This document shows, in pieces, positions 7,363 to 46,913 of a DNA stretch of 64,000 bases (its first letter is position 1; the number at the start of each line of letters is the position of its first letter). The position numbers and the translations under genes were made by a program. This DNA is from Escherichia phage EI-SP-GF. Under the pieces are notes generated by a model, which worked only from the letters and a program-made list of their open reading frames with translations, did not search any database and was not told where the DNA came from. The stretch lies in sequence record OR992645.1. One strand, 5' to 3'.

Positions 7363-7391
7363 TTGCTTTTGATGTATCTTTGTGGTAAAAT
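7363..7391 (+). promoter_or_regulatory. sigma70-like promoter TTGCTT-N17-TAAAAT with TGn extended -10
   Basis: ttgctt 7363-7368, 17-nt spacer ending tgg, taaaat 7386-7391; RBS gaggaa and ATG 7410 follow. Confidence 0.45.
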
Positions 7392-7409
7392 ACATTAGTG
7401 AGGAATATA

Positions 7410-10882: not shown

Positions 10883-10911
10883 TTGACAATGCACCATAAT
10901 CATGGTAAAAT
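10883..10911 (+). promoter_or_regulatory. sigma70-like promoter TTGACA-N17-TAAAAT with TGn
   Basis: ttgaca 10883-10888, spacer 17 nt ending tgg, taaaat 10906-10911. Confidence 0.5.
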
Positions 10912-10954
10912 ACACAAATATGGTGCACAACATGACTAATAAGGATGCTATAAA

Positions 10955-14082: not shown

Positions 14083-14091
14083 TTAAACTAT

Positions 14092-14120
14092 GTGGGGGCT
14101 TCTGGCCCCCTTTATTTTAT
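14092..14120 (+). terminator. rho-independent terminator after tape measure gene
   Basis: gggggc-ttctg-gccccc followed by tttatttta. Confidence 0.65.
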
Positions 14121-14125
14121 CAGTG

Positions 14126-14154
14126 TTGTAAAAACGGCTATTTTATGATACAAT
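14126..14154 (+). promoter_or_regulatory. sigma70-like promoter TTGTAA-N17-TACAAT with TGn
   Basis: ttgtaa 14126-14131, 17-nt spacer ending tga, tacaat 14149-14154. Confidence 0.4.
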
Positions 14155-14187
14155 ATCTAAATGGTATCGGAGTGTCCTGGAGAGGTT

Positions 14188-15072
14188 ATGCCAAGTAATA
14201 TAGTTGATGAAAAAGACCTGTACAAGCCTCAAGAGGTTAAATCTCCAAAGGCTGAAAAGGCAGAGCAGCAAACTGAAAGTGATGTAAAGTATACTATGTT
14301 TGTCAGCGGTCTTAACTACGGCGGTCGCAATATAGAGATGAAGGGTAAAAACTTCACTAACGACCTTGCCATTATCTTCGATCAGGTTGAGAATTATTCT
14401 TTTAAACAAACGGTCGATAAGTCAGATTTTGCAGTAGAAGATAAGTCTACCCTGTCAGACCATGCGGTGGTTAAGGATGGGGTATTTTCTTTCACTGGTC
14501 GGGTAAATACATCTCCTCATATAATTTATGAGCAAAACTACATTGATAGAAATACTGACTCCAAAAACCCTGCAGCGTCTATGCGACCTGGTGCGGCATT
14601 AGAAGCTTTGACAGAGATCATTAATAAGCGACAGTTGGTTTCTTTAGTTACCGAGGAGAGACTCCTTGAAAACTACATTATAACCAGTCTTTCTGCCAAC
14701 AAGTCTGTTGGTGAAGGTGCTGCAATGGTGTTTGATGTGGAACTTACAGAATTCCGCACATTCTACTTGAACAAGGTTGTTAATGCAACTGTATACAGCA
14801 ATCCTAAGAAGGTCGGTAAGACTCAACAAAAAGGTGCTGTCAACGATTGCAAGAATGGTAGTAACGTAGGTAACAAGAGAGACACAGGGGCATTTGCAGA
14901 CACCGCGTCCACAAATGCTGCAGAAGAGTGGCAGCCATACAAATCCATGATGTGGACAGATGAAAACGGTGTTACCCAATCAGCTGCAGATTGGTACTAT
15001 CAGGAATATGGAAGACCTTCCACCATAGTCCCATCTGAGCAGGGGAACTACAACAAAGTTAACGGAAAATAA
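14188..15072 (+). CDS. tail/baseplate assembly protein (post-tape-measure), function unknown
   Basis: ORF frame opens at 14161 but promoter -10 sits 6 nt upstream of that ATG; ATG 14188 has GGAG RBS. Confidence 0.45.
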   Translation: MPSNIVDEKDLYKPQEVKSPKAEKAEQQTESDVKYTMFVSGLNYGGRNIEMKGKNFTNDLAIIFDQVENYSFKQTVDKSDFAVEDKSTLSDHAVVKDGVFSFTGRVNTSPHIIYEQNYIDRNTDSKNPAASMRPGAALEALTEIINKRQLVSLVTEERLLENYIITSLSANKSVGEGAAMVFDVELTEFRTFYLNKVVNATVYSNPKKVGKTQQKGAVNDCKNGSNVGNKRDTGAFADTASTNAAEEWQPYKSMMWTDENGVTQSAADWYYQEYGRPSTIVPSEQGNYNKVNGK

Positions 15073-15084
15073 GGGGAGCGTGTA

Positions 15085-15465
15085 ATGGAGCTTAAAGATT
15101 GGTGCATAATCACCTTTGTGTGGGACATTGACGGCTTTCCTGATCAGACCATGCGTGTGGTTTTAGATAATGAAACCTATGAAATGCGTATGCAATGGAA
15201 CGAGAGGGATGAGTCCTGGTGGTTATCTCTTGGTCCAGTAGGCGACAGTCCTTTAGTAACCAGAAAAGTAACAGCTTGTCAAGACATTTTAGACGGACTG
15301 CATTACAGAGACGATTTACCGAAGGGTAGGCTGATGGCCCTGTCGTTTAAAGACGATCAATATTGGGGCAGGGTTGGAAGATACAACCTTGGGGCCAGAT
15401 CTGAGCTACAACTTGTATACGGCACCCCAGTTGATCTTTACAAGGAACAGCAAGGGTTAGCATAA
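15085..15465 (+). CDS. small tail/baseplate protein
   Basis: 126-aa ORF with RBS, in baseplate gene run. Confidence 0.45.
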   Translation: MELKDWCIITFVWDIDGFPDQTMRVVLDNETYEMRMQWNERDESWWLSLGPVGDSPLVTRKVTACQDILDGLHYRDDLPKGRLMALSFKDDQYWGRVGRYNLGARSELQLVYGTPVDLYKEQQGLA

Positions 15466-16469
15466 TGGCAGAGTATAGACGTAGAACATGGCGATTATTG
15501 TTTGGTCGCCCTGTAGAACATGGCGGAAAATCAAAAACCAATATCCCAAAATCTGTTGAAAAGAAAGGAGAAAGTGATTCTGGCGTTTATGAGATTAGCT
15601 CAGACACAGGTGCTGCCAATATAGAGTTCGACATACAAAAGGATAACACCAAAGAGCCAAACAAAGGCTATGTGATAGTTTACAACCTGTCTGACGATAC
15701 GGTTAACTATCTGGACATGCACCAGGCTGATGCTCTTGCGGTGATGTTTGAGGCTGGCTATGATAATGAGAACCAGTTGATATTCTCCGGAACTGTAGAG
15801 TTTGTTGAAGACAGGTGGGAAGGTCCGACTAGGAAAACTAAGTTCATCTTTGGAGATGGCACTGAGAACATCATTAAGTGCCAAAGCACCAGATCTTATC
15901 AGAAAGGTACACCTCTGGACTCTGTGCTTAATGACCTCCTGAAGGATATGAACTTACCAAAAGGTAGGGTTGTTGGTTTTGGAAACCAAACTTTGCAATA
16001 CTCCATGGCTTTCTCGGGGAATACTGCAGAGAACCTCCGCAGATTTGCAAGACTGACCAACTCAACATTTAGCGTTCAGGATGGGGCTTTATATTGGACC
16101 AAGGTTGGAAAAAGGTTCAAGGACTCTGTGTTTGAAATTAGTGCAGAGTCTGGGATGCACGGATCGCCCACCCCTAAAAACCCAGAGCCTGCGAGAAAAC
16201 GGAAAGCTAAAGCTGCTGCAAAAGGCGGTTCAACATCTAAAAAGAAAAAGAAAAACCCGAAAGAGGACGTTGGTCTTACCGTGACCACATGCCTTAACGG
16301 GGCTATCCTCCCAGAGTCAACCATCTATCTTAAGAGCAGACAATATACAGGCTTCTACAAGGTGATCACAGTGCACCACAAAGGCACCATCGAAGGAGGT
16401 GATTACATTACAGAGCTTGGACTTGGGGAAGCTGTTGGTGGGATTGTTGACAAAACTGAGGAGGTATAA
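15465..16469 (+). CDS. baseplate hub-like protein (P2 gpD / XkdQ-like, tentative)
   Basis: 334 aa, start overlaps upstream stop, immediately upstream of gpV-like spike; internal Lys-rich segment. Confidence 0.4.
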   Translation: MAEYRRRTWRLLFGRPVEHGGKSKTNIPKSVEKKGESDSGVYEISSDTGAANIEFDIQKDNTKEPNKGYVIVYNLSDDTVNYLDMHQADALAVMFEAGYDNENQLIFSGTVEFVEDRWEGPTRKTKFIFGDGTENIIKCQSTRSYQKGTPLDSVLNDLLKDMNLPKGRVVGFGNQTLQYSMAFSGNTAENLRRFARLTNSTFSVQDGALYWTKVGKRFKDSVFEISAESGMHGSPTPKNPEPARKRKAKAAAKGGSTSKKKKKNPKEDVGLTVTTCLNGAILPESTIYLKSRQYTGFYKVITVHHKGTIEGGDYITELGLGEAVGGIVDKTEEV

Positions 16470-17146
16470 TGGCAATAAACAGGAAAGATGCTGCTGTAAG
16501 ATCCTTTATAGAAAAAATAATGAGGGACTACCACACCAGTATTAGAGCCAGAGTTGTCAGTGTAGATTACAGTATCCCCTCTGCAGCCGTGCAGCCAATA
16601 GCCGAAACCATGTTTGACGATGGGGATGTAGAAAGGTACCCTCTTATCTATGATGTTCCAATCCAGGTGATGTCTGCAAACGGTGGGAAGGCAAGGTTAA
16701 CGCTTCCTATTAAAGCTGGTGATGTTGTAGGGCTGCAATTTTCAGAGAGAAATGAAAACAATAACGATGACCAGCAAACCCACGGCCTGTTTCCAGGATG
16801 GGCTATCACCTCTGTTCATTCAGACTCGAATGCTTTGCAGATCGATCCTGATAATGTAGAGTTATGGAATGATAGGGTTTATTTTAAGCTAACACCTTCT
16901 GGTGATTTTGAGCTTCAAACACCTGGTGGGACATTACGGTGCGACAGTAGCGGGGAGTTTTCTTTCACCAACGGGGCTGCCAATTTACGAGCTGCTGTGG
17001 ATGGAAATATCAGAATGAATGGTGCCACAATAGACCCATCAGGTAGAATTATAACGGCTGCTGGTGTGGATTTGGACTCATTCTATGCAGAATATAAAGG
17101 TCATACCCACTCTTGCCCTGATGGCGAGACAAGTGGACCGCACTAA
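16469..17146 (+). CDS. baseplate central spike protein (P2 gpV-like)
   Basis: 225 aa ending ...YKGHTHSCPDGETSGPH, resembling the His-containing apex motif (HTH..PGD.GGTTG.P) of gpV-type spikes. Confidence 0.65.
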   Translation: MAINRKDAAVRSFIEKIMRDYHTSIRARVVSVDYSIPSAAVQPIAETMFDDGDVERYPLIYDVPIQVMSANGGKARLTLPIKAGDVVGLQFSERNENNNDDQQTHGLFPGWAITSVHSDSNALQIDPDNVELWNDRVYFKLTPSGDFELQTPGGTLRCDSSGEFSFTNGAANLRAAVDGNIRMNGATIDPSGRIITAAGVDLDSFYAEYKGHTHSCPDGETSGPH

Positions 17147-17158
17147 TAGAGGGCTTGA

Positions 17159-17875
17159 ATGGCTACGCTTTATAGTGATATATTGATGGACCCACAGACA
17201 GGTGATTTGGCGATAGACAAAGGTCTTGAGTTGATAGATTCAAACCAAGTAAGTCTGCGCCAGCGCCTGTGGATGAGGTTTAATACATGGAAGGGGAGCT
17301 GGTACTTTGATGAGTTGTTTGGCTTCCCTTATATGGACTTTCTCAGTAAGAAGGTCATGAAGACTGTTCTTGATAACAAGATTATGGAAGTGGCAAGACA
17401 AGAGCCAGATGTGCTAAACATCATAAACTTCCAGTCTACTATGGATCGAAGATCGAGAACATACCAAGCGTTCTTTGAGGTTGTTACCAAGGAGAACGAG
17501 ATTGTAAGGCTGGCTTTCGTAGGTCTTGATCAGTTTACCTACCCACAGCCTGATGACGGGGCAACCTCTCTTTGTGATGATGAAGGTTGGATTAAGTGGG
17601 CTAATAAACTGTACTACCTGATCAACTTCAGATTGCCTAGAACTGGAGATGCTACGTGGTGGAACCAGTATGCTGGTCCTGAGATGGAAAACCCGATTCC
17701 TGTAGGTTCTCTGTTGACTCAGAATAAAGATCTGTTGATGACTGATGCAGAACAAACCATTAACCGCAATACCTGGACGCTTGCTCCAGATGAGCGCGAA
17801 TATTCTGGTGTTATTGCTACCTCTAATGATGAGGCTATTGCCAACCAGTCTGGTCGTGCTATCGATGTTAACTAA
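17159..17875 (+). CDS. baseplate wedge protein (gpW/gp25-like N-terminal domain)
   Basis: N-terminal region GDLAIDKGLELIDSNQVSLRQRLWMRFNTWKGSWYFDELFGFPY...EPDVLNI fits gpW/gp25 pattern. Confidence 0.5.
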   Translation: MATLYSDILMDPQTGDLAIDKGLELIDSNQVSLRQRLWMRFNTWKGSWYFDELFGFPYMDFLSKKVMKTVLDNKIMEVARQEPDVLNIINFQSTMDRRSRTYQAFFEVVTKENEIVRLAFVGLDQFTYPQPDDGATSLCDDEGWIKWANKLYYLINFRLPRTGDATWWNQYAGPEMENPIPVGSLLTQNKDLLMTDAEQTINRNTWTLAPDEREYSGVIATSNDEAIANQSGRAIDVN

Positions 17876-17884
17876 GGAGAAATC

Positions 17885-18553
17885 ATGGCTGTAGCTTATC
17901 CTACAATACCAATCCCAGATCTTGAAGATGCAGAAACAGTCTTGAGTGATGACTTCTTGGTTGTCAACCAGACTGACGGGACAAGAAAGGCTAAGATTGA
18001 TGATGTTGTCAATGATCTTAGCATTACTAAAATAGTTTATTTCACAGAGGGCGGTTATCTTAAGAGCAAGAAGGATTTTGCTTATGATCCGGAAACTAAG
18101 CGCTACTACACATGGAATGGAGATTATCCTAAAATAATCCTCCCAGATTCTACTGTAGAGGGTGCCGGAGGTGTGTCTGCAAAAGCATGGTCTGTTTTTG
18201 GAGAGCTTGCTGCAACTTCTTCAGGTAGGATAGTTGATTACGGCTCTATTGGTGGTCAACTTGACATGGATCTTGACGTTGCAGACACGTTTAAAGTTCG
18301 GCTCACTTCAAACACTACAATCTCTTTTGAAAATCAAACAGAAGGGCTCGACGGAGTGGCAAGAACTATAACTGTATGCATAACGCAGACCTCGGGTGGT
18401 AACAAAGTTTATTGGCCTGACAATGTTAAATGGGCCTACGGGAGAGATCCTATCCTAACATTTACAGCTGGTGCAACAGACATTTTCAAGTTGGAAACAT
18501 ATGATAATGGACTAACTTGGTACGGGGCACTGATCATCGCAGGAGCTATCTAA
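17885..18553 (+). CDS. tail fibre/tailspike N-terminal anchor-domain protein
   Basis: 222 aa; N-terminus (DDFLVVNQTDGTRKAKIDDVV...FTEGGYL...DFAYDPE) is paralogous to the N-terminus of the 1268-aa fibre at 21188. Confidence 0.55.
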   Translation: MAVAYPTIPIPDLEDAETVLSDDFLVVNQTDGTRKAKIDDVVNDLSITKIVYFTEGGYLKSKKDFAYDPETKRYYTWNGDYPKIILPDSTVEGAGGVSAKAWSVFGELAATSSGRIVDYGSIGGQLDMDLDVADTFKVRLTSNTTISFENQTEGLDGVARTITVCITQTSGGNKVYWPDNVKWAYGRDPILTFTAGATDIFKLETYDNGLTWYGALIIAGAI

Positions 18554-18554
18554 G

Positions 18555-21152
18555 ATGCGTATTCAACACAACATTGATAACGTATTTCAGATGATCGAGG
18601 GGCACAGGAAGTGCCTCGATAACAACACAGGTATTACCAATCTCCCTACACAGAACAAACTGGTAAACCAGGATGGACTTATAGCGTCAGGTTGGTCAGG
18701 AAGTAAGATAAATAATGATTGGGCAATGCATGAGTCCCAAGCCGTGTTGATTCTGGGATACATTGAGGCATACAGGGCATCAAAAAGCGATTTTTATCTA
18801 GACAGGGCCAAAGAGGCTTGGGAAGCCTACAACAGTCATCTTCTGGGAGTATATGCAGTAGAAAGTAAAATGCAAAGATTGTCCCACTACCCGTTATCCA
18901 CAGATGGAGTTCCATCACATGGTGGGTTTAAAGATGTGGTTGTGTCTTTTAACAAAGGTAGAGGAAAAATCCCAGCAGGATCCCCGACATGGGGAGAATA
19001 CTTGGACAAGGCTTTTCAGGCGTATAACGGTGTTTTAGGAAGAAACACTGTAGACTCTGATGTTTACGGCGGCACAGATGCTAATCCTAATTGGACAACT
19101 TCCGGATTAAGTTGGTGGGTTGAGTGGTATATAGCATGGGATGGTAACCGCTATTGGGCCAACGGTAGCATAGCCGACAGTGGTCATACGTCTGCAGAGT
19201 TCGGCACAATCCAACTGCAAGATAAGGGTGTTACAGGCAACCACAAGGTTACCTATTGTGTGAGATTGCCTAAAGAGCAGGGAGGATCGGTGATACCTGC
19301 TGGATCCCCTGTAATTGTAAATCCTATAAACGTGGTTGCAGACAATCAAGCCCCAGAGTTAGACGGGGAAGAGATGTGGTGTGACGCTTGTTATCAACTC
19401 TACACCTTGACAGGTGAGGAAAAGTATTACACCGCGTTTAAGCAGTCTTACAATAAGTTGCTTAATTTTAGTGATATAAATGCCTACGACAAGCTGTTCA
19501 GAAAGACCACGTTGATTAAGGCCCCGTTCACAGATGGCACTTGTCTAGTTGCAGGAACAGTACCTGTCATGAGTAGGGATAGTGACGGATATATCAATTT
19601 TAGAATGAACGCACGCCAGCCTTGCGAAATAATCCAAAAAGGGACTACATACAAAATAGGCAGAGATGCTGAAATTGTTATGAATTTCGGAGGAGAAGGG
19701 GTTCTGTTCCAGCCACATTTCATCCTTAATGATGGCAACAATAACAAAAAACAGTACAGAATAGGTGTACCTTTTGGAGGGGCAGAGGTAACAGAAACAG
19801 TTGCCAAGGTTACTGATTTTGTAGAGGTGGTTGGTAAAGACGGTAACCCGTATCTCTTGCCAAAAGAGGAAAACATTGCCGTAAGCGGTGGCGCTAGTGT
19901 TAGTATGCAGTATGATACCGACATTTACAACCACTCTGACAACTTCACCCGTTGCAACATAGTAAGAGGCAAGGTAACTTTCAATTTTGGAAGAGAGATT
20001 TCTTTAAACTCAGTGACTTATCGGTCAGATGATGAGATGGTAAGGGTCAAATTTCTTGACAAAGACCGTTGGTTATGGTATGCTGATCTATATGCTACTA
20101 ACGGGCAATGGATAACAGAAACTCTTACCCTGGGCGATTTTAAACTAGACCCAACACAACCTCATCACACAGAAGATGAGATTAAACCTTTCTTTGCTAA
20201 CCCTAAAGGAATTACCTCTGTAGATTTCAGTCTGAGCGACAGGCAGATAGGCAATGGCTTGTTCGATCTGTATTGCGTCAACACGCTGCCGCAATTTTAT
20301 GTTGCAGATAGGGATGCTTATCTGATCTGGTTTAGTGTATGGATGGCAAGCAAGACAGAATCAACCGCCAAGGTTGGTGATTGCTATGTCAGAAACTACA
20401 AGCAAGGAGCATACAGACACACTCCTGGTGTGTTCCCTGCTGGGAAGGTGATAGATAAGGAAAACTATCTCTTAGAGGAAAAGCCAAATTGGCCCTATCC
20501 TGGCATGCAATACCCAGCAGTCTACTGCATGGGTGCAGAAAACATAGATCGCCATAGATTGTCAAATACAATAGGCTTTCTGTACGACTCTCAAGTCTGG
20601 TATAATAATACATTTAAGACAGAGGGTCCAGTTGCCTCACGTTATGTATGGCAAAGAGGTAATGAAGGGTTGACTGGTTGGTGGGAGATGGTAGATAACT
20701 CTAAGCTCCAGTCAAGATCTTTTGTTGCTGCGTGCCGCACAATATATGAGCTCAAGAAACATAAAGAACCTGTTGATGAAAGACTGTTCCTGTTCTGCCA
20801 GAAATGGGCATGGTTCCTCAACAGATTCCAGTCATCTCATTCAGGAAATCTACCTACAGACTTTAACACCTCTGGAGGATACTCTTATCAGGACAGAGGA
20901 GACAGGATGTGGGTGGTAGGTGAATGGCTTGCAGGTTGCTGCTGGCTAGGTCTTTGCGGGTATTCAGAGACAATACCTCAAATAGATATTGTTGTAGAGG
21001 CCTGTATGAAGTTACTGCAAAAGCACCACTTCATTAACGGGGATAATGTTTTAAACGGCTGCTGGGCAGTTTCTGATCCGGTAGGCTATCACTCTGGCGA
21101 AATCCTTCGCGGTCTGGGACTTTATGCTCAATACCGTGGATTGTACCTTTAA
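18555..21152 (+). CDS. large tail-associated protein, putative carbohydrate-active enzyme (depolymerase candidate)
   Basis: 865-aa ORF starting 1 nt after the anchor-protein stop with AGGAGC RBS; Trp/Tyr-rich, no fibre repeats; enzymatic role is inference. Confidence 0.4.
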   Translation: MRIQHNIDNVFQMIEGHRKCLDNNTGITNLPTQNKLVNQDGLIASGWSGSKINNDWAMHESQAVLILGYIEAYRASKSDFYLDRAKEAWEAYNSHLLGVYAVESKMQRLSHYPLSTDGVPSHGGFKDVVVSFNKGRGKIPAGSPTWGEYLDKAFQAYNGVLGRNTVDSDVYGGTDANPNWTTSGLSWWVEWYIAWDGNRYWANGSIADSGHTSAEFGTIQLQDKGVTGNHKVTYCVRLPKEQGGSVIPAGSPVIVNPINVVADNQAPELDGEEMWCDACYQLYTLTGEEKYYTAFKQSYNKLLNFSDINAYDKLFRKTTLIKAPFTDGTCLVAGTVPVMSRDSDGYINFRMNARQPCEIIQKGTTYKIGRDAEIVMNFGGEGVLFQPHFILNDGNNNKKQYRIGVPFGGAEVTETVAKVTDFVEVVGKDGNPYLLPKEENIAVSGGASVSMQYDTDIYNHSDNFTRCNIVRGKVTFNFGREISLNSVTYRSDDEMVRVKFLDKDRWLWYADLYATNGQWITETLTLGDFKLDPTQPHHTEDEIKPFFANPKGITSVDFSLSDRQIGNGLFDLYCVNTLPQFYVADRDAYLIWFSVWMASKTESTAKVGDCYVRNYKQGAYRHTPGVFPAGKVIDKENYLLEEKPNWPYPGMQYPAVYCMGAENIDRHRLSNTIGFLYDSQVWYNNTFKTEGPVASRYVWQRGNEGLTGWWEMVDNSKLQSRSFVAACRTIYELKKHKEPVDERLFLFCQKWAWFLNRFQSSHSGNLPTDFNTSGGYSYQDRGDRMWVVGEWLAGCCWLGLCGYSETIPQIDIVVEACMKLLQKHHFINGDNVLNGCWAVSDPVGYHSGEILRGLGLYAQYRGLYL

Positions 21153-21187
21153 CATAGGGGGCTGTTTGCCCCCTTTCAGGAGAAAGA

Positions 21188-24994: not shown

Positions 24995-25001
24995 CTGTTT
25001 T

Positions 25002-25030
25002 GCCCTCGCTTCGGCGGGGGCTTTTTGTTT
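25002..25030 (+). terminator. rho-independent terminator (UUCG-loop hairpin)
   Basis: gccctcgc-ttcg-gcgggggc followed by tttttgttt. Confidence 0.7.
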
Positions 25031-25033
25031 GTA

Positions 25034-25062
25034 TTGCGTATTAACTCAAAATCTGGTAAAAT
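25034..25062 (+). promoter_or_regulatory. sigma70-like promoter TTGCGT-N17-TAAAAT with TGn
   Basis: ttgcgt 25034-25039, 17-nt spacer ending tgg, taaaat 25057-25062. Confidence 0.45.
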
Positions 25063-25093
25063 AACTATCATGATTGTTTAACCTGGAGGCACA

Positions 25094-25684
25094 ATGTTTT
25101 TATGGGAAAGGCCTAGATACCTTCCAGATATTAGATTGGAGCTGCTGGCAGATATTGTTACGTTTAAAAGTCCGTTTACAGGTAAAACGCAAAAAGTGAC
25201 CTATGCCACACCTAACTGGAAAGGCACTTTGACGGTTTCCAATATCAGCGAGTCACAGTTGCTAGAGCTTAAGAGCTTTGTTGATCAGGTGTATAAAGAC
25301 GGGAACATTTTTCTTATTAAAACGTACGGTCACTCAGTAACAGCTAATGAGCCAATCGCCCTTGGGCCTACCGGTAACGACGATTTTTTGAAGACGGTCG
25401 GATGGGAGCCAAACAGAGACATAGCCAGAGCTGGGGATAAAATATCTGTTAACGATGAATTGAAAGTGGTAACAGCTCCAGTGCGCAGCGATGGTGTTGG
25501 GTCTGCTGTTATAAGCATATCTCCAAGACTTAGAAAACCTATTGCCGCAGGGGACACTATGAAGATAATAACTCAATCCCCAAAGGGTAGGTTTCATATC
25601 AGAGATATTTATAAAATTAAGCAAAAAGTCGATGCTATGCAAAAAGGTGATAATATAGTTATCAACTTCTTTGAGGATTTCTAA
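25094..25684 (+). CDS. tail tip assembly protein (lambda gpM / GTA g12 position, tentative)
   Basis: 196-aa ORF with GGAGG RBS, first gene of a four-gene run ending in the lambda J-like protein. Confidence 0.4.
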   Translation: MFLWERPRYLPDIRLELLADIVTFKSPFTGKTQKVTYATPNWKGTLTVSNISESQLLELKSFVDQVYKDGNIFLIKTYGHSVTANEPIALGPTGNDDFLKTVGWEPNRDIARAGDKISVNDELKVVTAPVRSDGVGSAVISISPRLRKPIAAGDTMKIITQSPKGRFHIRDIYKIKQKVDAMQKGDNIVINFFEDF

Positions 25685-25685
25685 G

Positions 25686-26237
25686 ATGATTAGAGCGCCA
25701 TTAGATAATTTATTTCTTGAAAAGCTGGAGCTTGATAGTGTTGAGATCTTAATTGCTGCAAAGCTAGAGCTACCAACAGGGACTGTCAGGGTGTGCTCAG
25801 GAACTGGTGTTGTGGTGATTGAGGGGCAACATTTTATAGGGATAGGTGGATCAGCAACATTGACTGCTGTGTCTGAGAAAGATGCTACCAACTTCGGATC
25901 TGTGGTAGCAACATTGAACGGATTTGATCCCAAGTATGTAGGTGATCTGCTGAAGACAGAGTATTCGGGTTGTCGTGCCACGTTGTATATCACAGCTATG
26001 GAGAATGGTTTACCTGTTACAACCAATGGCTTGTTTGACGGCCTTATAACAGACATGGCTATTCAGACAGGGGAGAATAGTGCTTTGTCCATATCCATAT
26101 CTTCCATCTTCAACAGCTGGTTAAGAGGTTTTCCTTATCGATACACAGAGGAGAGCCATAGCTCAAGAAACGATAATGACAGATTTTTTAAATATGTGGA
26201 TCAGGTGGCAAGCCGCCCGATCATTTGGGAGGTTTAA
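25686..26237 (+). CDS. tail tip protein (lambda gpL / GTA g13 position, tentative)
   Basis: ORF frame opens 25671; ATG 25686 follows upstream stop; position-based call. Confidence 0.4.
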   Translation: MIRAPLDNLFLEKLELDSVEILIAAKLELPTGTVRVCSGTGVVVIEGQHFIGIGGSATLTAVSEKDATNFGSVVATLNGFDPKYVGDLLKTEYSGCRATLYITAMENGLPVTTNGLFDGLITDMAIQTGENSALSISISSIFNSWLRGFPYRYTEESHSSRNDNDRFFKYVDQVASRPIIWEV

Positions 26238-26662
26238 TGAGCACACACCCTCGTTTAGTAGACTGGCAAGAAAGATTGTGGAAAGTGTTTGACGAAGAAG
26301 CTACCGTCCAGTTTGAATGGGGATTCCACGATTGTTGCACTTTTGCGGCTAAATGTGTTGATGCCCAATATGGAACAGATTTTCTTTCTAACTTTGAAGG
26401 AACGTATAAAACAGAGTTGGAAAGCAAGAGATGGTGCATGCTCCGTTTCAAAACCACCCACCTGCCTACTATTTTTGATCTCTTTTTGACTCGACTGGAT
26501 ACTCCTAAACAGGTTCAGCGTGGCGATATTGTTATTTTCGAAGGTCTGAACGGGCTCACCGCTGGTGTGTTCTGGAACAACCAGATTTGGGCGAAAGGTG
26601 ATAAGGGGATCTTTATGTTCGACATGAAAGATTCTATCGTTGTTGATGTCTGGAGGTATTAA
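26237..26662 (+). CDS. NlpC/P60-like tail tip protein (lambda gpK C-domain / GTA g14-like)
   Basis: EWGFHDCCTFAAKCV (Cys-containing motif) and RGDIVIFEG; catalytic His not evident; located directly upstream of J-like gene. Confidence 0.4.
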   Translation: MSTHPRLVDWQERLWKVFDEEATVQFEWGFHDCCTFAAKCVDAQYGTDFLSNFEGTYKTELESKRWCMLRFKTTHLPTIFDLFLTRLDTPKQVQRGDIVIFEGLNGLTAGVFWNNQIWAKGDKGIFMFDMKDSIVVDVWRY

Positions 26663-29600
26663 TGCCAATTGCAATGATTGATAACATCGTTGCTTCTGCA
26701 AGATCTTCGAGCTATGACTGGAACGCATCCAAGGCAGCTCTGGCTGACAGCCTGAACACTGTTACCACCAGAACCCTGGATAAGATTTTCGAAGGTAACA
26801 AATCTTACAGAAGTCAGCAAGATAGACAAAAGCTTCTCAGATCTTCTGCTGCACCTTGCTCTGTAGTGTATGGGAAGACACGCACATCTGGATTGCTTGC
26901 GTTTTTGGAGCAGGACAGGGACAGAACCCTTCATTGTGCTATTGTTCTTGCCAATCATCCCTTGGAAGGTATAGAAGATATACTTATCGACGGTAATCCT
27001 ATTTCCTCGTATGGGGATTTGGTATCGTGGGAGTTACATAACGACAGGAAAACCTCTGATCCTTTCATGGGTACACACTGCCCTTCGTGGTCACCAGACA
27101 TGATAGGTAGAGGGATCAGTTGGCTACGTGCCAGCTTTAAGTTTGACCCTAACAAGTTTCCTTTTGGGTTGCCAAACGTTACACTCGTCAAGGTTGGTAA
27201 AAAATGTTATGATCCTCGTATCAGTAAAGAGGTGTATACCAATAACGCTGCCTTGGTGATTCTGGACTACCTAAGAACGTACCTTAAATGTCCTGACGAA
27301 ACCATCAACTGGGAGTCCTTCAAGGAAGCTGCCAACATATGCGATGAGGCTGTAAAAAACGCGGACGGAACCAGTGAGCGCCGTTACACCATTAATGGCG
27401 AGTTCGACATGGATGAAGCACCAGCAAGCATTATGGCAGAGATGCTGAAAGCTTGTGGTGCAGACCTTAGCTATGTAGCTGGCAAATATGGTCTGCTGGT
27501 AGGTGCATACTATGGCCCGGCAACAATGACACTTAGCGAGAACTGTGTTTGCGGTGAGGTTAAGATCTATCCTGAAGCCTCCTTCGACAAAAGATCCAAC
27601 ACAATAACTGGCAGATTCACTAGTCCGGCCAAAGGGTATTCTGAAACAGATTTTCCATCAGTGTTTGTCCCAGAGTGGGTAGAGAAGGATGGAGAAAGAA
27701 AGATAATCGATATAGATTATCGCTTTGTTACCAGTCCTTATCAAGCTCAGCGTGTTTCTGCAATCTTCTTAAGACGTGCCAGAGCTGGTAGGATTATTGA
27801 AGTAACCTGCAATATGCGGGGTTTTAAATTTAAGCCTGGGCGTTACGTTACGATGGACCTCCCAAGTATTGGTATAGTGGGCCAAGAAATGAGGGTTCTT
27901 GAATGGGAGTTCACCAAAAAGGGCGGTGTCAAGGTAAAACTCCGTCAAGATGCTAAAGAGTGGAATGATGCCACAGGGCAACTTCCGGATTCTGGAGATG
28001 TGGATATTCCGATATCCCCGTCCGGCGTAGCTCAACCGCAAAACTTCAGATACTCTGTTCTTCAAGCTGGGGAAGTAACTCATGGTGTTTTGGCTTGGGA
28101 CAACGTTGGAACTTATGCTCAAAATATTGTGCAGGTAAGAAAGAACGGAGAGATTATTTGGACAGCACAGACAGTTGAGCAGTTTGTCCGCGTAGAAGGA
28201 TTGACCAAAGGGTCATACACAGCAACCGTGGTTGCAACATCTTATAAAGGTGGTGTATCTCCAGAAGCTTACTGCGAGTTTAACATTCAAGCACCTGAAG
28301 CTCCTGTTTCTGTAGAAGTTAAGCAGGGATACTTTGCTATCACCTTGATTCCGCACAGCAGGGACTTAGCAAGTGTAAGCACCCAGTATGATTTTTGGAC
28401 ATCTGGTATGACAAGGTTGCCGGACACAAGTGATGCAACCGTTACTTCAAAAGCCACCCGTATGGGTGTTGGTTCAACTTGGACATCTGAAGGTCTGCAG
28501 AACGATAAGATTTATTATTGGTATATTCGAACCACAAACGCTTTTGGTAGTTCTCAGTTTGTAGAATGCGCTGCACGCTGCTACACCTCTATTGAAGATT
28601 TGATGCCTCAGATAGATGCTGAATTTAAAAAGACAGAAACTTATAAAGAGTTGATGAGCACTTTAGATTCCTCTATCGAGGAGGTTGAAAATCGTGTCAC
28701 AGAGCTTAACAAGTACATGGACGGAAGGGTAGATGAGGCATTCCAACAACTTGGAGATAGGATAGGTGCGGTAGTTGCAGAGACAACTCAGAAGTTTGAG
28801 GATGTCAATGGTAATATCACAGCTCTGGATAGGAAACTTGTTGCTGCACAGAACAAGTTCACCAACGATCTGAACACTGAAAGTGGAAGACTGGCATCCC
28901 TGATCGAGACAACCAATAAAGCAACCACTGATCTTCTGAACAAAAAGACAGAGGCTTTAGACGAGAAATTGGTTGCAGCCAAAGGGGAGTTGGTAGAACA
29001 AATAAGTGGTGTGGAGAGCGGATACCTTGCCGGAGATAAAACTCTAGATGGCAAGATCAATACCCAGAGAACGGAACTTGATGCAAGCATCTTAAGCACC
29101 AACCAGGCGACAGTGGATCTTCTCAACAGGACATCTGAAACTTTGGATCAAAAGATCAGTCAGACAAACGCGACGGTATCTAAGAACTATACCACCCTTG
29201 ATGGTAAGATAACTACCGCAAAAACTGATCTCAATACCTTGATTGCCAATACCAACAAGGCCACCACAGATTTGTTGAATCAGAAAACCTCTGCACTGTC
29301 GGAGCAGATAACTTCTGCACGTGGAGAAATTTCTACCAACAAACAGGCGATTAAGGATTTGGATGGTAAGCTGACCTCCACAAAAACAGCACTGGACGCT
29401 ACAATCTCCGATACCAACAAAGCAACCGTGGATCTTATTAACGGCACAGCGTCAGCTATTCGTCAAGAACTTGCTGTTGCTAAGCAGGAGATCATTGATG
29501 ATGTCGGTGATGTGTCAGAGCTTAGAGCTGCAGTAGCTACAACATCTAAGGCTGTGACAGACTTAGAGGGCAAAGTAACTGCTCAATGGGGCACAAAAAT

Positions 29601-30501
29601 ACAGGTAGACTCCGCAGGGAATAAGTATGTGGCAGGTATCCAATTGGGCATGGAAGGCTCTGGAGGCCAAGTTCAATCATACTTCATGGTTAGTGCAAAC
29701 AACTTTGCGGTATACAACCCCGGAAATGGAACAGCAACCCTTGCTTTCGCAATCAAGAACAACCAAGCATTCTTGAAAGATGCTTTTATAGAGAACGGGA
29801 CGATCTCTTCTGCCAAGATTGCACAAGAAATTTCGTCTAACAACTACGATGGCAACGGGTACCATAAATACGGTTGGTATATTAACAAGAACGGACACGC
29901 CCAGTTTATGGATGTGTGGGTGAAAGGTAACATCAACGCTAGTGCAGGTAACTTCACAGGGGCAGTTAACGCTACCAGTGGCACTTTCCGTGGGGATGTT
30001 TATGCCAATAATGGTAGCTTTAGAGGCACCATAGATGCAACAGGAGGTACATTCCGTGGACGTGTAGAAGCTTCCGTTATCCGTGCTAACCAGTTCGAAG
30101 GTGCAATCGTTGCACATAGGACCTATGGTGACTGTCCTCCGGTATATAACTCGCAGCAGAGGGTTTGCCGTTGGAGGTGGAGATATGTGGACAACGTTTC
30201 AGGGCAAGGTAAGAACGTAACATTCTTCTTTAAACTAAACGGAACCTTGTCTGGCTCCCAGCTCAACGTTTGGATAGCCGGACATCAAATCCTTGCAGGT
30301 AAGAAGTACGGAAACGACAACAACGGCATGTGTGCGGTAGGGATAACTGGTCTCGGTGAACAAACCATAGACATTATCGTCGAGATATACACACCATGGT
30401 CAACGTCAAGCGTGACAGGAGTTACAATATCTTGTCCAACCGTAATAGTTAGTCGTTCAAACTCTAGCTTCCAGGGACCTTGGAACGAGTCTCATGACTA
30501 A
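26662..30501 (+). CDS. lambda gpJ-like host specificity / central tail fibre protein
   Basis: 1279 aa; FN3-region motifs PEAPVSVEVKQGYFAITLIPH...FW...YYWYIRTTNAFGSSQFVE and VQSYFMVSANNFAVYNPGNG...NNQAFLKDAFI closely parallel lambda J ([21 protein letters not shown]...YYFYIRSVNTVGKSAFVE; LSQFLVAANRIAFIDPANG). Confidence 0.8.
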   Translation: MPIAMIDNIVASARSSSYDWNASKAALADSLNTVTTRTLDKIFEGNKSYRSQQDRQKLLRSSAAPCSVVYGKTRTSGLLAFLEQDRDRTLHCAIVLANHPLEGIEDILIDGNPISSYGDLVSWELHNDRKTSDPFMGTHCPSWSPDMIGRGISWLRASFKFDPNKFPFGLPNVTLVKVGKKCYDPRISKEVYTNNAALVILDYLRTYLKCPDETINWESFKEAANICDEAVKNADGTSERRYTINGEFDMDEAPASIMAEMLKACGADLSYVAGKYGLLVGAYYGPATMTLSENCVCGEVKIYPEASFDKRSNTITGRFTSPAKGYSETDFPSVFVPEWVEKDGERKIIDIDYRFVTSPYQAQRVSAIFLRRARAGRIIEVTCNMRGFKFKPGRYVTMDLPSIGIVGQEMRVLEWEFTKKGGVKVKLRQDAKEWNDATGQLPDSGDVDIPISPSGVAQPQNFRYSVLQAGEVTHGVLAWDNVGTYAQNIVQVRKNGEIIWTAQTVEQFVRVEGLTKGSYTATVVATSYKGGVSPEAYCEFNIQAPEAPVSVEVKQGYFAITLIPHSRDLASVSTQYDFWTSGMTRLPDTSDATVTSKATRMGVGSTWTSEGLQNDKIYYWYIRTTNAFGSSQFVECAARCYTSIEDLMPQIDAEFKKTETYKELMSTLDSSIEEVENRVTELNKYMDGRVDEAFQQLGDRIGAVVAETTQKFEDVNGNITALDRKLVAAQNKFTNDLNTESGRLASLIETTNKATTDLLNKKTEALDEKLVAAKGELVEQISGVESGYLAGDKTLDGKINTQRTELDASILSTNQATVDLLNRTSETLDQKISQTNATVSKNYTTLDGKITTAKTDLNTLIANTNKATTDLLNQKTSALSEQITSARGEISTNKQAIKDLDGKLTSTKTALDATISDTNKATVDLINGTASAIRQELAVAKQEIIDDVGDVSELRAAVATTSKAVTDLEGKVTAQWGTKIQVDSAGNKYVAGIQLGMEGSGGQVQSYFMVSANNFAVYNPGNGTATLAFAIKNNQAFLKDAFIENGTISSAKIAQEISSNNYDGNGYHKYGWYINKNGHAQFMDVWVKGNINASAGNFTGAVNATSGTFRGDVYANNGSFRGTIDATGGTFRGRVEASVIRANQFEGAIVAHRTYGDCPPVYNSQQRVCRWRWRYVDNVSGQGKNVTFFFKLNGTLSGSQLNVWIAGHQILAGKKYGNDNNGMCAVGITGLGEQTIDIIVEIYTPWSTSSVTGVTISCPTVIVSRSNSSFQGPWNESHD
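28860..29480 (+). repeat. in-frame tandem repeat region encoding repeated T-x-NKATTDLLN-x-KT/ TLDGKI coiled-coil units inside the J-like gene
   Basis: protein segments TNKATTDLLNKKTEALDEK / TNQATVDLLNRTSETLDQK / TNKATTDLLNQKTSALSEQ / TNKATVDLINGTASAIRQE recur about every 40 aa. Confidence 0.5.
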
Positions 30502-30507
30502 CAGTAA

Positions 30508-30536
30508 AGCCCCGCTTCGGCGGGGTTTATTTTTAT
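30508..30536 (+). terminator. rho-independent terminator (UUCG-loop hairpin)
   Basis: gccccgc-ttcg-gcggggt followed by ttatttttat. Confidence 0.7.
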
Positions 30537-30543
30537 GCTCAGA

Positions 30544-30572
30544 TTGACTATTGTTACAAAATTTGGTAAAAT
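30544..30572 (+). promoter_or_regulatory. sigma70-like promoter TTGACT-N17-TAAAAT with TGn
   Basis: ttgact 30544-30549, spacer 17 nt ending tgg, taaaat 30567-30572. Confidence 0.5.
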
Positions 30573-30605
30573 ACCTTGTAGAGATTTTCATACCGGAGGA
30601 GTGAC

Positions 30606-32096
30606 GTGGCTAAGTATGGATTGACAGAGGCTGGTTTCGTTATACCAACCCTAAATGACCTAATCGTTGAAACTAAGCAAAGCCTGATCCGTGCTTTTGG
30701 CGAAAACTTCAACGTACAGAGTAACTCCGTTGCAGATAAGCTGACCACTATCTTCAACGAGCGAGAGTATCAACTTATTCTTATGGCAGCATCTGTATAC
30801 GCATCGCAGACGCTGTATGGGGCAGAAGGTATTTACCTGGATGAGCTTCTTGGAAGACAGGGTATTTACCGAAGAGGCCGTTCTAAATCATCAGGTACCT
30901 GCCAGTTGACAATCAACACAACTGTGCCGTACAATATGATTTATGATTCCAAAACTTATACGCTGGACAGTGGCAACTTTGTTCTTAGCAACGATGTGCA
31001 GGTGGCGGGAAATCTTATTGCTCACAGAATAAACGCTCCAGACCTAAGAATTGGGAAATACAACTTTCAAATTACCAACCAGACAGACGGAAGTATCAAA
31101 ACAAAAAGTCTGGTTTTAACAGATAAGGCTCTGGACTCTTCTGATTTGCCAAGCTTTTACGGCGAGATTAAGCAATTCATTGTCGATAATACAACCCTGC
31201 TGAATGATGATTTAATTCAGATAGATATGTTGACAGGGACGTTGTGGATAGGGTACAATTCGAATCTTGATCAAGTTGGACTTAATAGCAGGGTAGATTT
31301 CAGAGTATCCCCGATTGTAGGGGAAAGAACTATCACCCTAGATGTTATCGCTAACGAGGCTGGTGAGCTGTCAAGAGAGGCAGAAACCGTGACAACAATG
31401 TCACCTACTCCCAGTGGATTTATCAAGCTTACCAACCGAGAAAGATTCAATGAGGGTAGGGATGTTGAGAAAGACTCTGAGTATCGCTTAAGAGCTTCCA
31501 GCACTAAACAGCTGACATCTAAAGCTACCCGTCCTGCAATCCTTAGCGCTGTAAGCGAGGTGAAAGGTGTTGAGAAAGTAAGAGTGTTCTCCAACAACAC
31601 CGATAAAACGGATGCGAAAGGTATACCACCTTATAAGTTTCAAGTGGTGGTGTTTGGTGGTGCAACAGAGGATATCTGTCAGGCGCTGTATCAAACCATA
31701 GCTTGCACAAACAGAACTTATGGGAATATCTTCTACGATATTACCACATCAGACGGTCAGACTGAAAGGATTTATTACTCCAAGGCAAATACCTACCGCC
31801 TAGATGTAAGAATTACCTACTCAGGTGCTGCGCTTTCCACAACCGAAAAAGATGCCATTGTAGAGGCTCTTTTACAGGTTGTTAACGGACTGGATGTTGC
31901 AGATACGTTGTACAATATCCAATTGGTTGGTGCTGCATCAGCTGCTGTGTCAATAGGCAGATTTAACAGACTTGTGATTCAAGTAAAACCTGTGGGAGCC
32001 TCTGATGAAGCTTACACTACAAACGATATTGTTGCAAACATGACTGAGGTGTTTGACCTAGACGAAAGTAATATAACTTTCCAACAAACTATTTAA
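30606..32096 (+). CDS. baseplate J-like wedge protein (P2 gpJ / T4 gp6 family, tentative)
   Basis: 496 aa, GTG start with GGAGG RBS; C-terminal half shows the same pattern as P2 gpJ (alternating hydrophobic strands, ...YNIQLVGAA...); followed by gpI-like gene. Confidence 0.45.
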   Translation: MAKYGLTEAGFVIPTLNDLIVETKQSLIRAFGENFNVQSNSVADKLTTIFNEREYQLILMAASVYASQTLYGAEGIYLDELLGRQGIYRRGRSKSSGTCQLTINTTVPYNMIYDSKTYTLDSGNFVLSNDVQVAGNLIAHRINAPDLRIGKYNFQITNQTDGSIKTKSLVLTDKALDSSDLPSFYGEIKQFIVDNTTLLNDDLIQIDMLTGTLWIGYNSNLDQVGLNSRVDFRVSPIVGERTITLDVIANEAGELSREAETVTTMSPTPSGFIKLTNRERFNEGRDVEKDSEYRLRASSTKQLTSKATRPAILSAVSEVKGVEKVRVFSNNTDKTDAKGIPPYKFQVVVFGGATEDICQALYQTIACTNRTYGNIFYDITTSDGQTERIYYSKANTYRLDVRITYSGAALSTTEKDAIVEALLQVVNGLDVADTLYNIQLVGAASAAVSIGRFNRLVIQVKPVGASDEAYTTNDIVANMTEVFDLDESNITFQQTI

Positions 32097-32107
32097 GGCG
32101 GTGAGAT

Positions 32108-32794
32108 ATGGCAGAGATTAAGTCGGATGTCAACCACATCCACACTCTGCCAGATTTTGTTCAGGGAGGTCTTGATTACCTGCCTGGAGATTTTCTGGCT
32201 GAGAAGGTTAATTTAGTCACATTCTTAACCGTGTACCTTAAAAGGTTGGAGGATGTTGATAAAATGCTGGTAGGCTTGGCTGAAGGAAGATTGCTTAACA
32301 ATGCCAGCGGGAGATACCTTGACGAAGTTGGTAATCAACTCGGTATTCTTCGGAATGGGCTTTCAGATGCGGATTTTCGTGCTACCCTGGTTATTCAGCA
32401 AGCAGCAGCATCAAGGGGTGGGACTCGCGAAGATGTCATCTCCACCTTGCGACAATTGTTCGGAAGAGACAATTTCGATACGTGGAAAGGTGACAATTTC
32501 AGGTTTGACATAAACATTAGAAAAACTTGCTTTGACATATTGCAGTCTATCGACCAGATCTTAGATATGCTGCCATTGCCTTGTCATTTGCGTCTTACGG
32601 AGTCGCAAGGGCAAGCTTTTGGTTTTGAAGGGGACTCTACAGCTCTCGGCTTCGGATCAGTGTGGGAAGAAAACCAGTTCGGGGTTGGTGGGCTGGCTAC
32701 TTTGTTATATGTTCCTGACGTAAGACCTGATTGGGATACCACAACTATTTATTGTGAAAGTATTACAGTAAACGCAACTAGACAGGAGGGTTAA
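32108..32794 (+). CDS. baseplate wedge protein (P2 gpI-like, tentative)
   Basis: 228-aa ORF immediately after baseplate J-like gene. Confidence 0.4.
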   Translation: MAEIKSDVNHIHTLPDFVQGGLDYLPGDFLAEKVNLVTFLTVYLKRLEDVDKMLVGLAEGRLLNNASGRYLDEVGNQLGILRNGLSDADFRATLVIQQAAASRGGTREDVISTLRQLFGRDNFDTWKGDNFRFDINIRKTCFDILQSIDQILDMLPLPCHLRLTESQGQAFGFEGDSTALGFGSVWEENQFGVGGLATLLYVPDVRPDWDTTTIYCESITVNATRQEG

Positions 32795-36903: not shown

Positions 36904-36934
36904 AGTCCTTAAGGAATTTTCTCAGGAGAATGTG

Positions 36935-45681: not shown

Positions 45682-45690
45682 CAGGAGACA

Positions 45691-45724
45691 AATAAAAAGG
45701 GGCCAAACGGCCCCTTTCTTTTTA
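45691..45724. terminator. bidirectional rho-independent terminator between convergent blocks
   Basis: A-tract aataaaaa, ggggcc-aaac-ggcccc hairpin, T-tract tttcttttta. Confidence 0.75.
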
Positions 45725-45727
45725 TAG

Positions 45728-45928: not shown

Positions 45929-45931
45929 TTC

Positions 45932-46883: not shown

Positions 46884-46913
46884 TTAGTCAGTCTCCATCT
46901 AGAAAGCCATACT

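Follow-up and report, generated by a model that had tools for sequence, protein, structure and literature searches.

How does a phage with a contractile tail come to encode the tail tip of a siphophage, and what could it do with it? The question is raised by a 64,000-nucleotide stretch of Escherichia phage EI-SP-GF (OR992645.1; here called the window), in which the genes for a contractile baseplate are split, between the sheath-initiator and wedge genes, by about 12.7 kb of other genes (17885-30501). An earlier note on this DNA had described this split, and every open reading frame (ORF) that it named is present where it was placed, on the plus strand like all genes discussed here (Table 1). 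At the end of the intervening block stand four genes (25094-30501) encoding proteins of 196, 188, 145 and 1279 residues. The earlier note had read them as a lambda-J-type tip module, and our analysis indicates a module more complete than it claimed, in which a distal tail protein (Dit) and a gpL/BHUB1 hub adaptor precede the DUF6950 gene. Together with the J-like protein, these form a complete siphovirus tail-tip set. Judged from its genes, the window is predicted to encode two tail-end devices, a contractile baseplate and a siphovirus tip cassette, and we infer that one virion physically bears both.

The largest cassette product, the 1279-residue J-like protein, starts with 47 hydrophilic residues, which are followed by a hub region (about residues 64-490), an Ig_J region (493-652), a long coiled coil, a Phage_Tail_Tip domain (957-1097) and a C-terminal domain. 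Its Pfam domains (Ig_J, Ig_J_second and Phage_Tail_Tip) bear out the parallel drawn earlier between its fibronectin type III (FN3) region and lambda gpJ. By plain phmmer, the protein aligns to lambda J over the Ig/FN3 and fibre regions only. The lambda TipJ model (NCBIfam NF049904) matches residues 497-722 only, with 147.8 bits against a cut-off of 1950, and because the score falls so far under this cut-off, the protein is not a lambda-J equivalent. A hub domain is indicated N-terminal to these regions. Over residues 48-490 it shares 57% identity with the J-like tail tip protein of CAjan (Seuratvirus), many homologues at 46-57% identity carry Phage-tail_3 (PF13550), for which the 1279-residue protein itself gives E 0.04, and a tblastn search with residues 1-490 reaches T5-like pb3 at about 20% identity (E ~1e-4). 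An AlphaFold2 (AF2) model of residues 1-520 has a mean predicted local distance difference test (pLDDT) score of 59, with about 80-90 over residues 64-270. Foldseek matches this model to DT57C pb3 (5e-16), T5 pb3 (1e-13) and lambda gpJ (1e-9), as well as to the RcGTA virion chain 6tba_8A and the JBD30 and Sf11 hubs; all of these top matches have probability 1.00, at TM-scores that are low (0.3-0.4), a feature we put down to the model's poor global geometry. The modelled N-terminus is predicted to carry a hub fold, and the likeness to lambda J thereby extends beyond FN3 and fibre repeats. Given the tblastn link to pb3, the PF13550 homologues and the Foldseek hub matches, the idea that the J-like protein is a mere FN3/fibre look-alike was rejected. 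The 2013 rV5 paper had listed COG4733 and HHpred matches to Mu-type hub proteins for the rV5 counterpart, gp37. The label of a lambda-J-type tip consequently stands for the general architecture, in that both the Ig/FN3 region and the hub N-terminus parallel gpJ, but not for the kinship, as the closest relatives are Queuovirinae and T5-type tips rather than lambda. At the other end of the protein, the C-terminal 183 residues share about 30% identity with the corresponding ends of J-like proteins from phage 9g and from Klebsiella siphophages, and an F2-pyocin fibre is among the PDB matches to the fibre region.

The extreme N-terminus of the J-like protein departs from that of its relatives. Residues 1-47 (26662-26802) have a mean Kyte-Doolittle value of -0.15 and 10 charged residues. 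All 22 prophage and metagenome homologues compared have an Ala/Gly/Ile/Val-rich stretch at this point (+0.9 to +1.6, with 1-4 charged residues), and six of seven phage homologues are likewise more hydrophobic (+0.5 to +1.6), the exception being the distant homologue of Caulobacter phage Kronos. The Vequintavirus protein begins with the same M-P-x-A as these homologues. In the prophage and metagenome proteins the stretch resembles a transmembrane segment. Such a hydrophobic segment may serve a lumen, tape-measure or membrane-channel role in a true tail end, and its loss here would fit a copy that no longer conducts DNA.

Plain phmmer searches of the 196-, 188- and 145-residue proteins against the PDB returned no matches, the first two matched nothing in Pfam or NCBIfam at E up to 10, and single-sequence homologue searches returned only near-identical Vequintavirus copies. 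With a family profile, the 196-residue protein matches PDB pb9-type Dit over its full length (E 8e-4), and hhalign against DT57C pb9 gives a probability of 92% (E 7e-7, 176 columns). These matches identify it as a Dit of the T5 pb9 type. For the 188-residue family, an exhaustive HMMER search gathered 638 homologues, six members of the family match PF09931, and a 105-sequence profile matches pb3 residues 16-178 (E 1e-8). The AF2 model of this protein has a pLDDT of 92, and a fold search with the protein matches lambda gpL, though hhalign of the 105-sequence profile against the single lambda gpL sequence gave no match. Small profiles (7-8 sequences) of the 188- and 145-residue families found no PDB match, and the link for the 188-residue protein appeared only with the 105-sequence profile. 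We conclude that this protein is a gpL/BHUB1 hub adaptor. The BHUB1-like homologues P0165, P0176, P0270, P0174 and P0249 include proteins of some 320-490 residues that match in their C-terminal half, and PHROG 2048, a 390-position profile, is matched only at positions 173-359. In the long homologues, Dit and BHUB1 may be fused, or BHUB1 may have gained a further domain at its N-terminus.

The third small protein, from the position of lambda gpK and of g14 in the gene transfer agent (GTA), matches DUF6950 and nothing else in Pfam, and has no NCBIfam match. Its FxWGxxDC and RGD(I/V)V motifs line up with two parts of lambda gpK, its Cys region and its 'GDV' motif (hhalign, a weak E of 0.08), while the catalytic His of gpK (HAAIY) aligns with Thr, Leu or Ser in the DUF6950 family. 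The NlpC/P60-like label proposed earlier is plausible and is drawn from motifs only; if the fold is common to both proteins, the canonical triad is not kept. All four genes of the run as first described are real, with likely revisions to two starts. The 188-residue gene probably starts at ATG 25686, abutting the upstream stop (183 residues), and the 145-residue gene at ATG 26237, with a one-base overlap with the upstream stop (141 residues).

The order of the four genes is that of a siphophage tail end. In CAjan, the tape measure protein (TMP) gene is followed by genes for proteins of 194, 194, 144 and 1040 residues, to which the window proteins are collinear and 32, 40, 44 and 54% identical, respectively. 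The same order from TMP to J is found in PMBT28, Vibrio phage 1.004.O, psageK9 and Kronos, and in HTVC111P with one extra small ORF. Where a TMP was identified, the cassette lies directly 3' of it in six of six siphophages; here it does not, the TMP gene ending at 14082 and the cassette starting at 25094. A tblastn search with residues 1-490 of the J-like protein found 116 Vequintavirus copies at at least 95% identity, and the next matches are all siphophages: CAjan and other Seuratviruses at 57%, then phages of Salmonella, Klebsiella, Pantoea, Vibrio, Pseudomonas, Acinetobacter and Pelagibacter.

The arrangement is widespread within one genus. When 14000-33000 was compared with phage records by megablast, 127 records matched, and 113 of them span at least 80% of the query at 90-96% identity. 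Nearly all of the 113 are Escherichia phages of the genus Vequintavirus, for example rV5, FV3 and several BASEL isolates, and by this measure the window is assigned to Vequintavirus as an rV5-like myovirus. Because 113 independent records share the region at this identity, it is a natural, well-sampled arrangement and not an assembly artefact or chance, and an assembly chimera or contamination was rejected on the same ground. Also matching the region are 18 records labelled 'Campylobacter phage' (host C. jejuni; MG065646, MG065647, MG065653 and others), two of those listed being about 92% identical. These are probably coliphage carry-over or wrong host labels.

The cassette is bounded by candidate transcription signals. 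Immediately upstream of it, and again between it and the wedge gene, lies a strong terminator hairpin (CGCTTCGGCGGGG followed by a T-run) and then the sequence AAAAT(C/T)TGGTAAAATA. This 16-mer occurs only twice in the 64 kb, against 0.11 expected, and exact TGGTAAAATA also stands just upstream of two other late genes (7383-7392 and 10903-10912). From its position and enrichment, the motif is probably a phage late promoter (-10 element). A terminator and a promoter-like motif at each boundary suggest that the cassette would be transcribed as a separate late unit. Equivalent elements lie 5' of the wedge gene in CR8 and Seu621, and such terminator and motif pairs may mark cassette borders used in module exchange.

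The cassette is also under strong constraint. Ratios of nonsynonymous to synonymous substitution (dN/dS; Nei-Gojobori, against two other Vequintaviruses) are 0.00-0.02 for Dit, 0.01 for BHUB1, 0.08-0.10 for the DUF6950 protein and 0.03-0.04 for J, in the same range as the core baseplate genes (0.007-0.047). GC content, overall and at third codon positions (GC3), matches that of neighbouring genes, and the J N-terminus and the wedge gene are each found in 116 records at at least 95% identity. A recent or decaying insertion was rejected on the low dN/dS and neighbour-like GC3, and the low dN/dS and matching GC and GC3 argue for long residence of the cassette.

The native baseplate into which the cassette is set was identified by a single phmmer run in which the proteins, concatenated, were compared with the PDB (phiTE entries 9CUY/9MJN). 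All seven core proteins match phiTE chains (E 4e-24 to 4e-157) as well as phi92 gp135-139, gp145 and gp146 (21vq), and Pfam and PHROG matches agree with these assignments. The hub, spike, gpW/gp25-like, J-like and I-like genes proposed in the earlier note are borne out in this way, the 496- and 228-residue proteins each matching a phiTE wedge chain. The earlier note had named two results that would refute its reading, a 1279-residue protein without a hub domain and 496- and 228-residue proteins unrelated to baseplate J/I, and neither was obtained. The position 14188, from which the earlier note began the region, is an alternative start of the tube-initiator gene (14161-15072). The TMP gene is followed by these myovirus hub genes and not by the tip cassette. 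The spike ends in an HxH apex (...KGHTHSCPDGETSGPH, also given as …HTHSCPDGETSGPH), its terminal sequence being exactly as first read. The contractile set is complete: besides the tube initiator, the spacer and the hub, it has a spike, a sheath initiator and two wedge proteins. In phiTE, these proteins form the entire hub, the wedge ring and the start of the sheath (PMC11972413). Because the core matches these phiTE proteins, the phage has its own tube-capping hub and membrane-piercing spike.

One core protein carries an addition. The sheath initiator matches phiTE over residues 1-171 only, leaving its C-terminal ~65 residues outside the match, and at 238 residues it is longer than its counterparts of 177 residues in phiTE and CR8, 204 in Seu621 and 211 in muut and phi92. 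In phiTE, the sheath initiator's C-terminal helix joins the N-terminal helix bundle of a fibre, and the ~65-residue extension could be an extra fibre-docking element.

Table 1. Genes and boundary signals of the tail-end region of the window, in order of position
Feature	Position	Strand	Evidence
Tape measure protein (TMP)	11743..14082	+	TMP annotation in relatives; dN/dS 0.04
Tube initiator, Dit_like fold	14161..15072	+	PF21821 E 7e-22; phiTE 9cuy_K E 2e-43; phi92 gp135
Spacer / Pam3 gp18-type plug	15085..15465	+	PF22479 E 3e-18; phiTE spacer E 4e-24
Baseplate hub (trimer)	15465..16469	+	phrog_196 E 2e-81; phiTE hub 9cuy_X E 2e-107; phi92 gp137
Central spike	16469..17146	+	PF18352 E 6e-10; phiTE puncture apparatus 5e-59; 3pqi 'gene product 138' 4e-17
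Sheath initiator (gp25/gpW equivalent), 238 aa	17159..17875	+	phiTE sheath initiator E 4e-59, aa 1-171 only; phrog_120
Anchor protein, 222 aa, Tail_spike_N	17885..18553	+	PF18668 E 3e-10
Tail protein, 865 aa	18555..21152	+	phrog_2871; muut gp024 35% identity, 927 aligned positions (query aa 2-863)
S74 fibre, 1268 aa	21188..24994	+	Tail_spike_N + Peptidase_S74 (Pfam)
Terminator hairpin (25002-25021) and late-promoter-like motif AAAATCTGGTAAAATA (25048-25063)	25002..25063	+	Immediately upstream of cassette
Dit, T5 pb9 type, 196 aa	25094..25684	+	phrog_1302 E 2e-50; CAjan post-TMP protein 32% identity
Hub adaptor, gpL/BHUB1/DUF2163 type	25671..26237	+	Probably 183 aa from ATG 25686 (188 aa as first read)
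DUF6950 protein, gpK / GTA g14 position	26225..26662	+	PF22262 E 3e-33; CAjan 'putative peptidase' 44% identity
J-like tail tip protein, 1279 aa (= rV5 gp37)	26662..30501	+	phrog_31 E 9e-163; CAjan J-like 54% identity
Second terminator (30507-30528) and late-promoter-like motif (30558-30573)	30507..30573	+	Between cassette and wedge gene
Baseplate wedge, Baseplate_J family, 496 aa	30606..32096	+	PF04865; phiTE 494-aa wedge chain E 4e-157; phi92 gp145
Second wedge protein (gpI position), 228 aa	32108..32794	+	phrog_4056 E 4e-103; phiTE 214-aa wedge chain E 4e-65; phi92 gp146

The position of the cassette, between the sheath-initiator and wedge genes, is one at which related phages differ. The wedge gene is directly 3' of the sheath-initiator gene in Certrevirus CR8 (of the genus of phiTE), and the two genes also adjoin in the published, contiguous gene order of Septuagintavirus W70 (PMC11370258). 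In Mydovirus Seu621, about 7.7 kb of depolymerase and fibre genes occupy the slot, and in the phi92-like phage muut (Justusliebigvirus) it holds an anchor protein, a 958-residue tail protein, an N4 gp65-like protein and a small membrane protein. Because different receptor-binding genes occupy it in related phages, the slot is a hot spot for such genes. By tblastn, the 222-residue anchor, the 865-residue protein and a 690-residue N4 gp65-like protein are common to the window and muut, and in Seu621, CR8 and muut, no homologue of any of the four cassette proteins was found out to about 19 kb from the wedge gene. Absence of the cassette was judged at the baseplate locus, in one representative each of Certrevirus, Mydovirus and Justusliebigvirus, together with the published W70 order. 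Among these genera, the block 21188-30501, comprising the S74 fibre and the four-gene run, appears specific to Vequintavirus.

The remaining genes of the slot include both the anchor-domain protein and the S74-chaperone fibre recognised earlier. The 222-residue anchor has a C-terminal half in common with muut gp023 (41% identity, tblastn) and an N-terminus paralogous to that of the 1268-residue fibre. The 865-residue protein has no Pfam match, and the enzyme function first given to it is putative. The 1268-residue fibre is chimeric, joining a Tail_spike_N anchor to a lateral-fibre shaft of the Seuratvirus type and an S74 chaperone; its shaft is 31-46% identical to that of the CAjan lateral fibre, with the chaperone likewise in common, whereas the CAjan fibre carries a lambda-Stf-type anchor (PF08400) in place of Tail_spike_N. 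It is the most variable gene of the block (85% nucleotide identity to FV3; dN/dS 0.13-0.15), and because of this divergence it is a likely determinant of host range.

Beyond the second wedge gene, the 690-residue N4 gp65-like protein (32794-34866) has NCTSP_N, TIM-barrel_NCTSP and Calx-beta domains and carries the GMSHY motif. Its gene lies between the sheath-initiator and wedge genes in muut and after the second wedge gene here. A 2026 preprint ties the GMSHY motif to the N4 glycan receptor (NGR) (10.64898/2026.04.02.716166). Two paralogous short-tail-fibre genes follow (34879-35919 and 36932-37978, both phrog_4465), with a lambda-type tail fibre assembly gene between them (35934-36518). The N-terminus of the protein encoded at 34879-35919 matches that of the phiTE short tail fibre, which binds a wedge protein. 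Farther on, at about 44000-52000, GC skew and AT skew flip sign (from about +0.1 to -0.15) and turn positive again after about 52 kb, consistent with a minus-strand gene block.

We propose that the cassette was probably captured by an ancestor of Vequintavirus, and that the donor, an E. coli siphophage resembling Queuovirinae (Seuratvirus/Nonagvirus type), supplied a lateral fibre of the Seuratvirus type along with it. A shaft and S74 chaperone that are CAjan-like, with a swapped anchor, suggest a single such donor for side fibre and tip, with the side fibre refitted to a new mount. The captured genes would have landed in the sheath-initiator/wedge slot, where related phages keep receptor-binding genes. 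By analogy with Sf11, T5 and lambda, their products would be expected to self-assemble, Dit as a hexamer and BHUB1 and J as trimers, the J trimer ending in a long coiled-coil fibre; the solved Sf11 tip contains DTP, BHUB1 and BHUB2 at 6, 3 and 3 copies (PMC12724387). The native baseplate would cap the tube and deliver the DNA, while the Dit-BHUB1-J complex would be displayed as an extra organelle for receptor binding or anchoring, not as a DNA channel. The cassette is unlikely to be a conduit because the native tube initiator, hub and spike fill the tube end, because it has no tube or TMP of its own, and because its J-like protein is without the hydrophobic N-terminal segment. On balance, we lean towards this accessory role.

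Several observations weigh against it, and some of them speak for other readings. In purified rV5 particles, gp37 is represented by 4 peptides and 5 spectra, with one strong tryptic peptide only (PMC3606486 supplement), and neither the rV5 text nor parts 1, 3 and 4 of its supplement name gp38-40 among the tail proteins detected (PMC3606486). This could mean that the J-like trimer enters the virion alone, as an ordinary lateral fibre, and that the Dit-like, BHUB1-like and DUF6950 proteins are folding or trimerisation helpers left out of the particle. The BASEL annotation, 'lateral tail fiber protein with fibronectin type III domain', agrees with such a fibre. The data set is shallow, however, with only 15 spectra for the sheath protein (PMC3606486), too few to prove absence. 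Dit and BHUB1 are, moreover, stoichiometric structural parts of solved tips (Sf11 Table 1, PMC12724387), and here their dN/dS of 0.00-0.02 matches the low values of core structural genes, all of which leaves the helper reading doubtful. Other observations bear on attachment and receptor. Low-resolution cryo-electron microscopy (cryo-EM) maps of two BASEL Vequintaviruses, phages with nine annotated fibre proteins each, resolved only three fibre types near the baseplate and assigned the J-like protein to none of them (PMC12143355). On the tip proteins, we found no docking or adaptor domain for baseplate attachment, Dit, BHUB1 and the DUF6950 protein having the lengths of their siphovirus counterparts. 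In genome-wide screens on derivatives of K-12, the NGR glycan is the receptor assigned to Vequintavirus, and NGR or lipopolysaccharide (LPS) core sugars are reported for the non-Straboviridae myoviruses taken together; the screens report no outer-membrane protein receptor, so no receptor is known for the J-like fibre (10.64898/2026.04.02.716166). The model of the J N-terminus, with the mean pLDDT given above, is itself only moderately confident.

The same complex could instead sit on the tail axis as a lambda/T5-like central fibre, with Dit-BHUB1-J beneath the native hub and enclosing the small spike. Every part of a coaxial tip, from six-fold to three-fold, is kept under selection, hub-type proteins are otherwise known on the tail axis only, the few gp37 spectra are compatible with 3 copies per virion, and the loss of hydrophobicity at the J N-terminus could equally reflect a cone lumen emptied to hold the spike. 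Against this, the native hub and spike are complete and close to those of phiTE, whose spike tip is free, a Dit ring is made for stacking onto the end of a tube, a place already taken by the tube initiator and hub, and the published descriptions examined mention no central fibre on rV5-type particles. We consider an axial position unlikely, and equally unlikely its corollary that receptor binding opens the cone, as in T5 pb3 and lambda gpJ, and thereby licenses sheath contraction. Localisation of cassette products on the particle has not been published, and the nearest relatives are co-occurring E. coli siphophages, both of which would suit a role outside the virion, either as free tip complexes released at lysis that block the receptors of competing siphophages or as a decaying recombination remnant. 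Purifying selection on all four genes and a record count equal to that of the wedge gene speak against decay, and the late-promoter-like motif, the location within the structural operon region and the gp37 peptides in purified particles make any non-virion role very improbable. The boldest reading, with a fully assembled siphovirus tip on the contractile baseplate, either as a coaxial receptor-gated cap and central fibre over the spike or as a peripheral hub-based organelle, and a T5/lambda-style trigger coupled to sheath contraction, earns only limited credence from us. If true, it would describe a hybrid adsorption machine that arose by wholesale capture of the end-piece of another tail type.

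The cassette genes are already public in about 116 records under piecemeal annotation, which reads 'distal tail protein' and 'central tail fiber J' for RefSeq FV3 and 'tip attachment protein J' in other records. The searchable literature does not state the complete Dit-gpL-(K)-J cassette, its Queuovirinae affinity or its restriction to Vequintavirus among the related genera examined, nor its likely separate transcription, strong constraint and altered J N-terminus, and a search for discussion of a tail tip in Vequintavirus returned nothing relevant. The phiTE, RBPseg, BASEL, rV5 and Sf11 papers do not place the J-like protein on the particle, and the BASEL authors consider it unclear which genes build which rV5-like fibre (PMC8594841). 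Few E. coli phages are isolated as often as the rV5-like ones, which are valued for their broad host range. The cassette raises the questions of how a tube-closing tip mounts on a contractile baseplate and what that tip senses, and the answer would show whether entire tail-end assemblies, beyond fibre tips, move between siphoviruses and myoviruses. The arrangement may also offer a natural engineering scaffold, by which a contractile phage might be given J-type fibres whose receptor domains are known. Among existing material, the BASEL Vequintaviruses bear on the location of the tip, as do the maps deposited as EMD-51868 and EMD-51869. A solved phi92 baseplate (PDB 21vq; chains gp135-139, 145 and 146), for which a literature search found no accompanying paper, could reveal what docks in the slot where Vequintavirus adds extra genes.

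Compared with known systems, the core of the window is an ordinary contractile baseplate, its seven proteins corresponding chain for chain to those of phiTE (9CUY/9MJN) and phi92 (21vq), with Pam3, P2 and Mu more distant. The difference lies in the slot, where Certrevirus (CR8) has adjacent genes and phi92-like phages have other receptor-binding genes, and where only Vequintavirus has a siphovirus tip cassette. Contractile and J-fibre-bearing flexible-tail modules also lie side by side, under common control, in the adjacent R-type and F-type pyocin clusters of Pseudomonas. Each of these clusters encodes a full tail with tube and TMP, and the products are two separate particles; the window, by contrast, has one set of tube, sheath and TMP, and a second particle is not expected.

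The cassette itself resembles the solved siphophage tips, namely Sf11 (DTP, BHUB1, BHUB2), T5/DT57C (pb9, pb3), lambda (gpM, gpL, gpK, gpI, gpJ), RcGTA 6tba, T1, JBD30, R4C and Chi, in its pb9-type Dit, its split hub and its Ig/FN3 and Phage_Tail_Tip fibre domains, the last as in lambda gpJ. As in these tips, the hub in the window is divided between a BHUB1/gpL protein and a J/BHUB2 protein. Unlike them, the window has no gpI homologue, no MPN/C40 gpK and no tube or TMP associated with the cassette, and its particle is contractile. The closest counterpart is the tip of CAjan and other Queuovirinae, whose four genes are the same, similar in size and identically ordered, and with a J-like protein that aligns from residue 48 through Ig_J and again through the tail-tip fibre domain. 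Relative to CAjan, the J-like protein of the window has about 200 residues more of coiled coil, a different C-terminal domain and an N-terminus that is hydrophilic instead of hydrophobic. In CAjan, the cassette follows the TMP gene and is the only tail end of the phage, whereas in the window it lies 11 kb from the TMP gene, inside a myovirus baseplate cluster.

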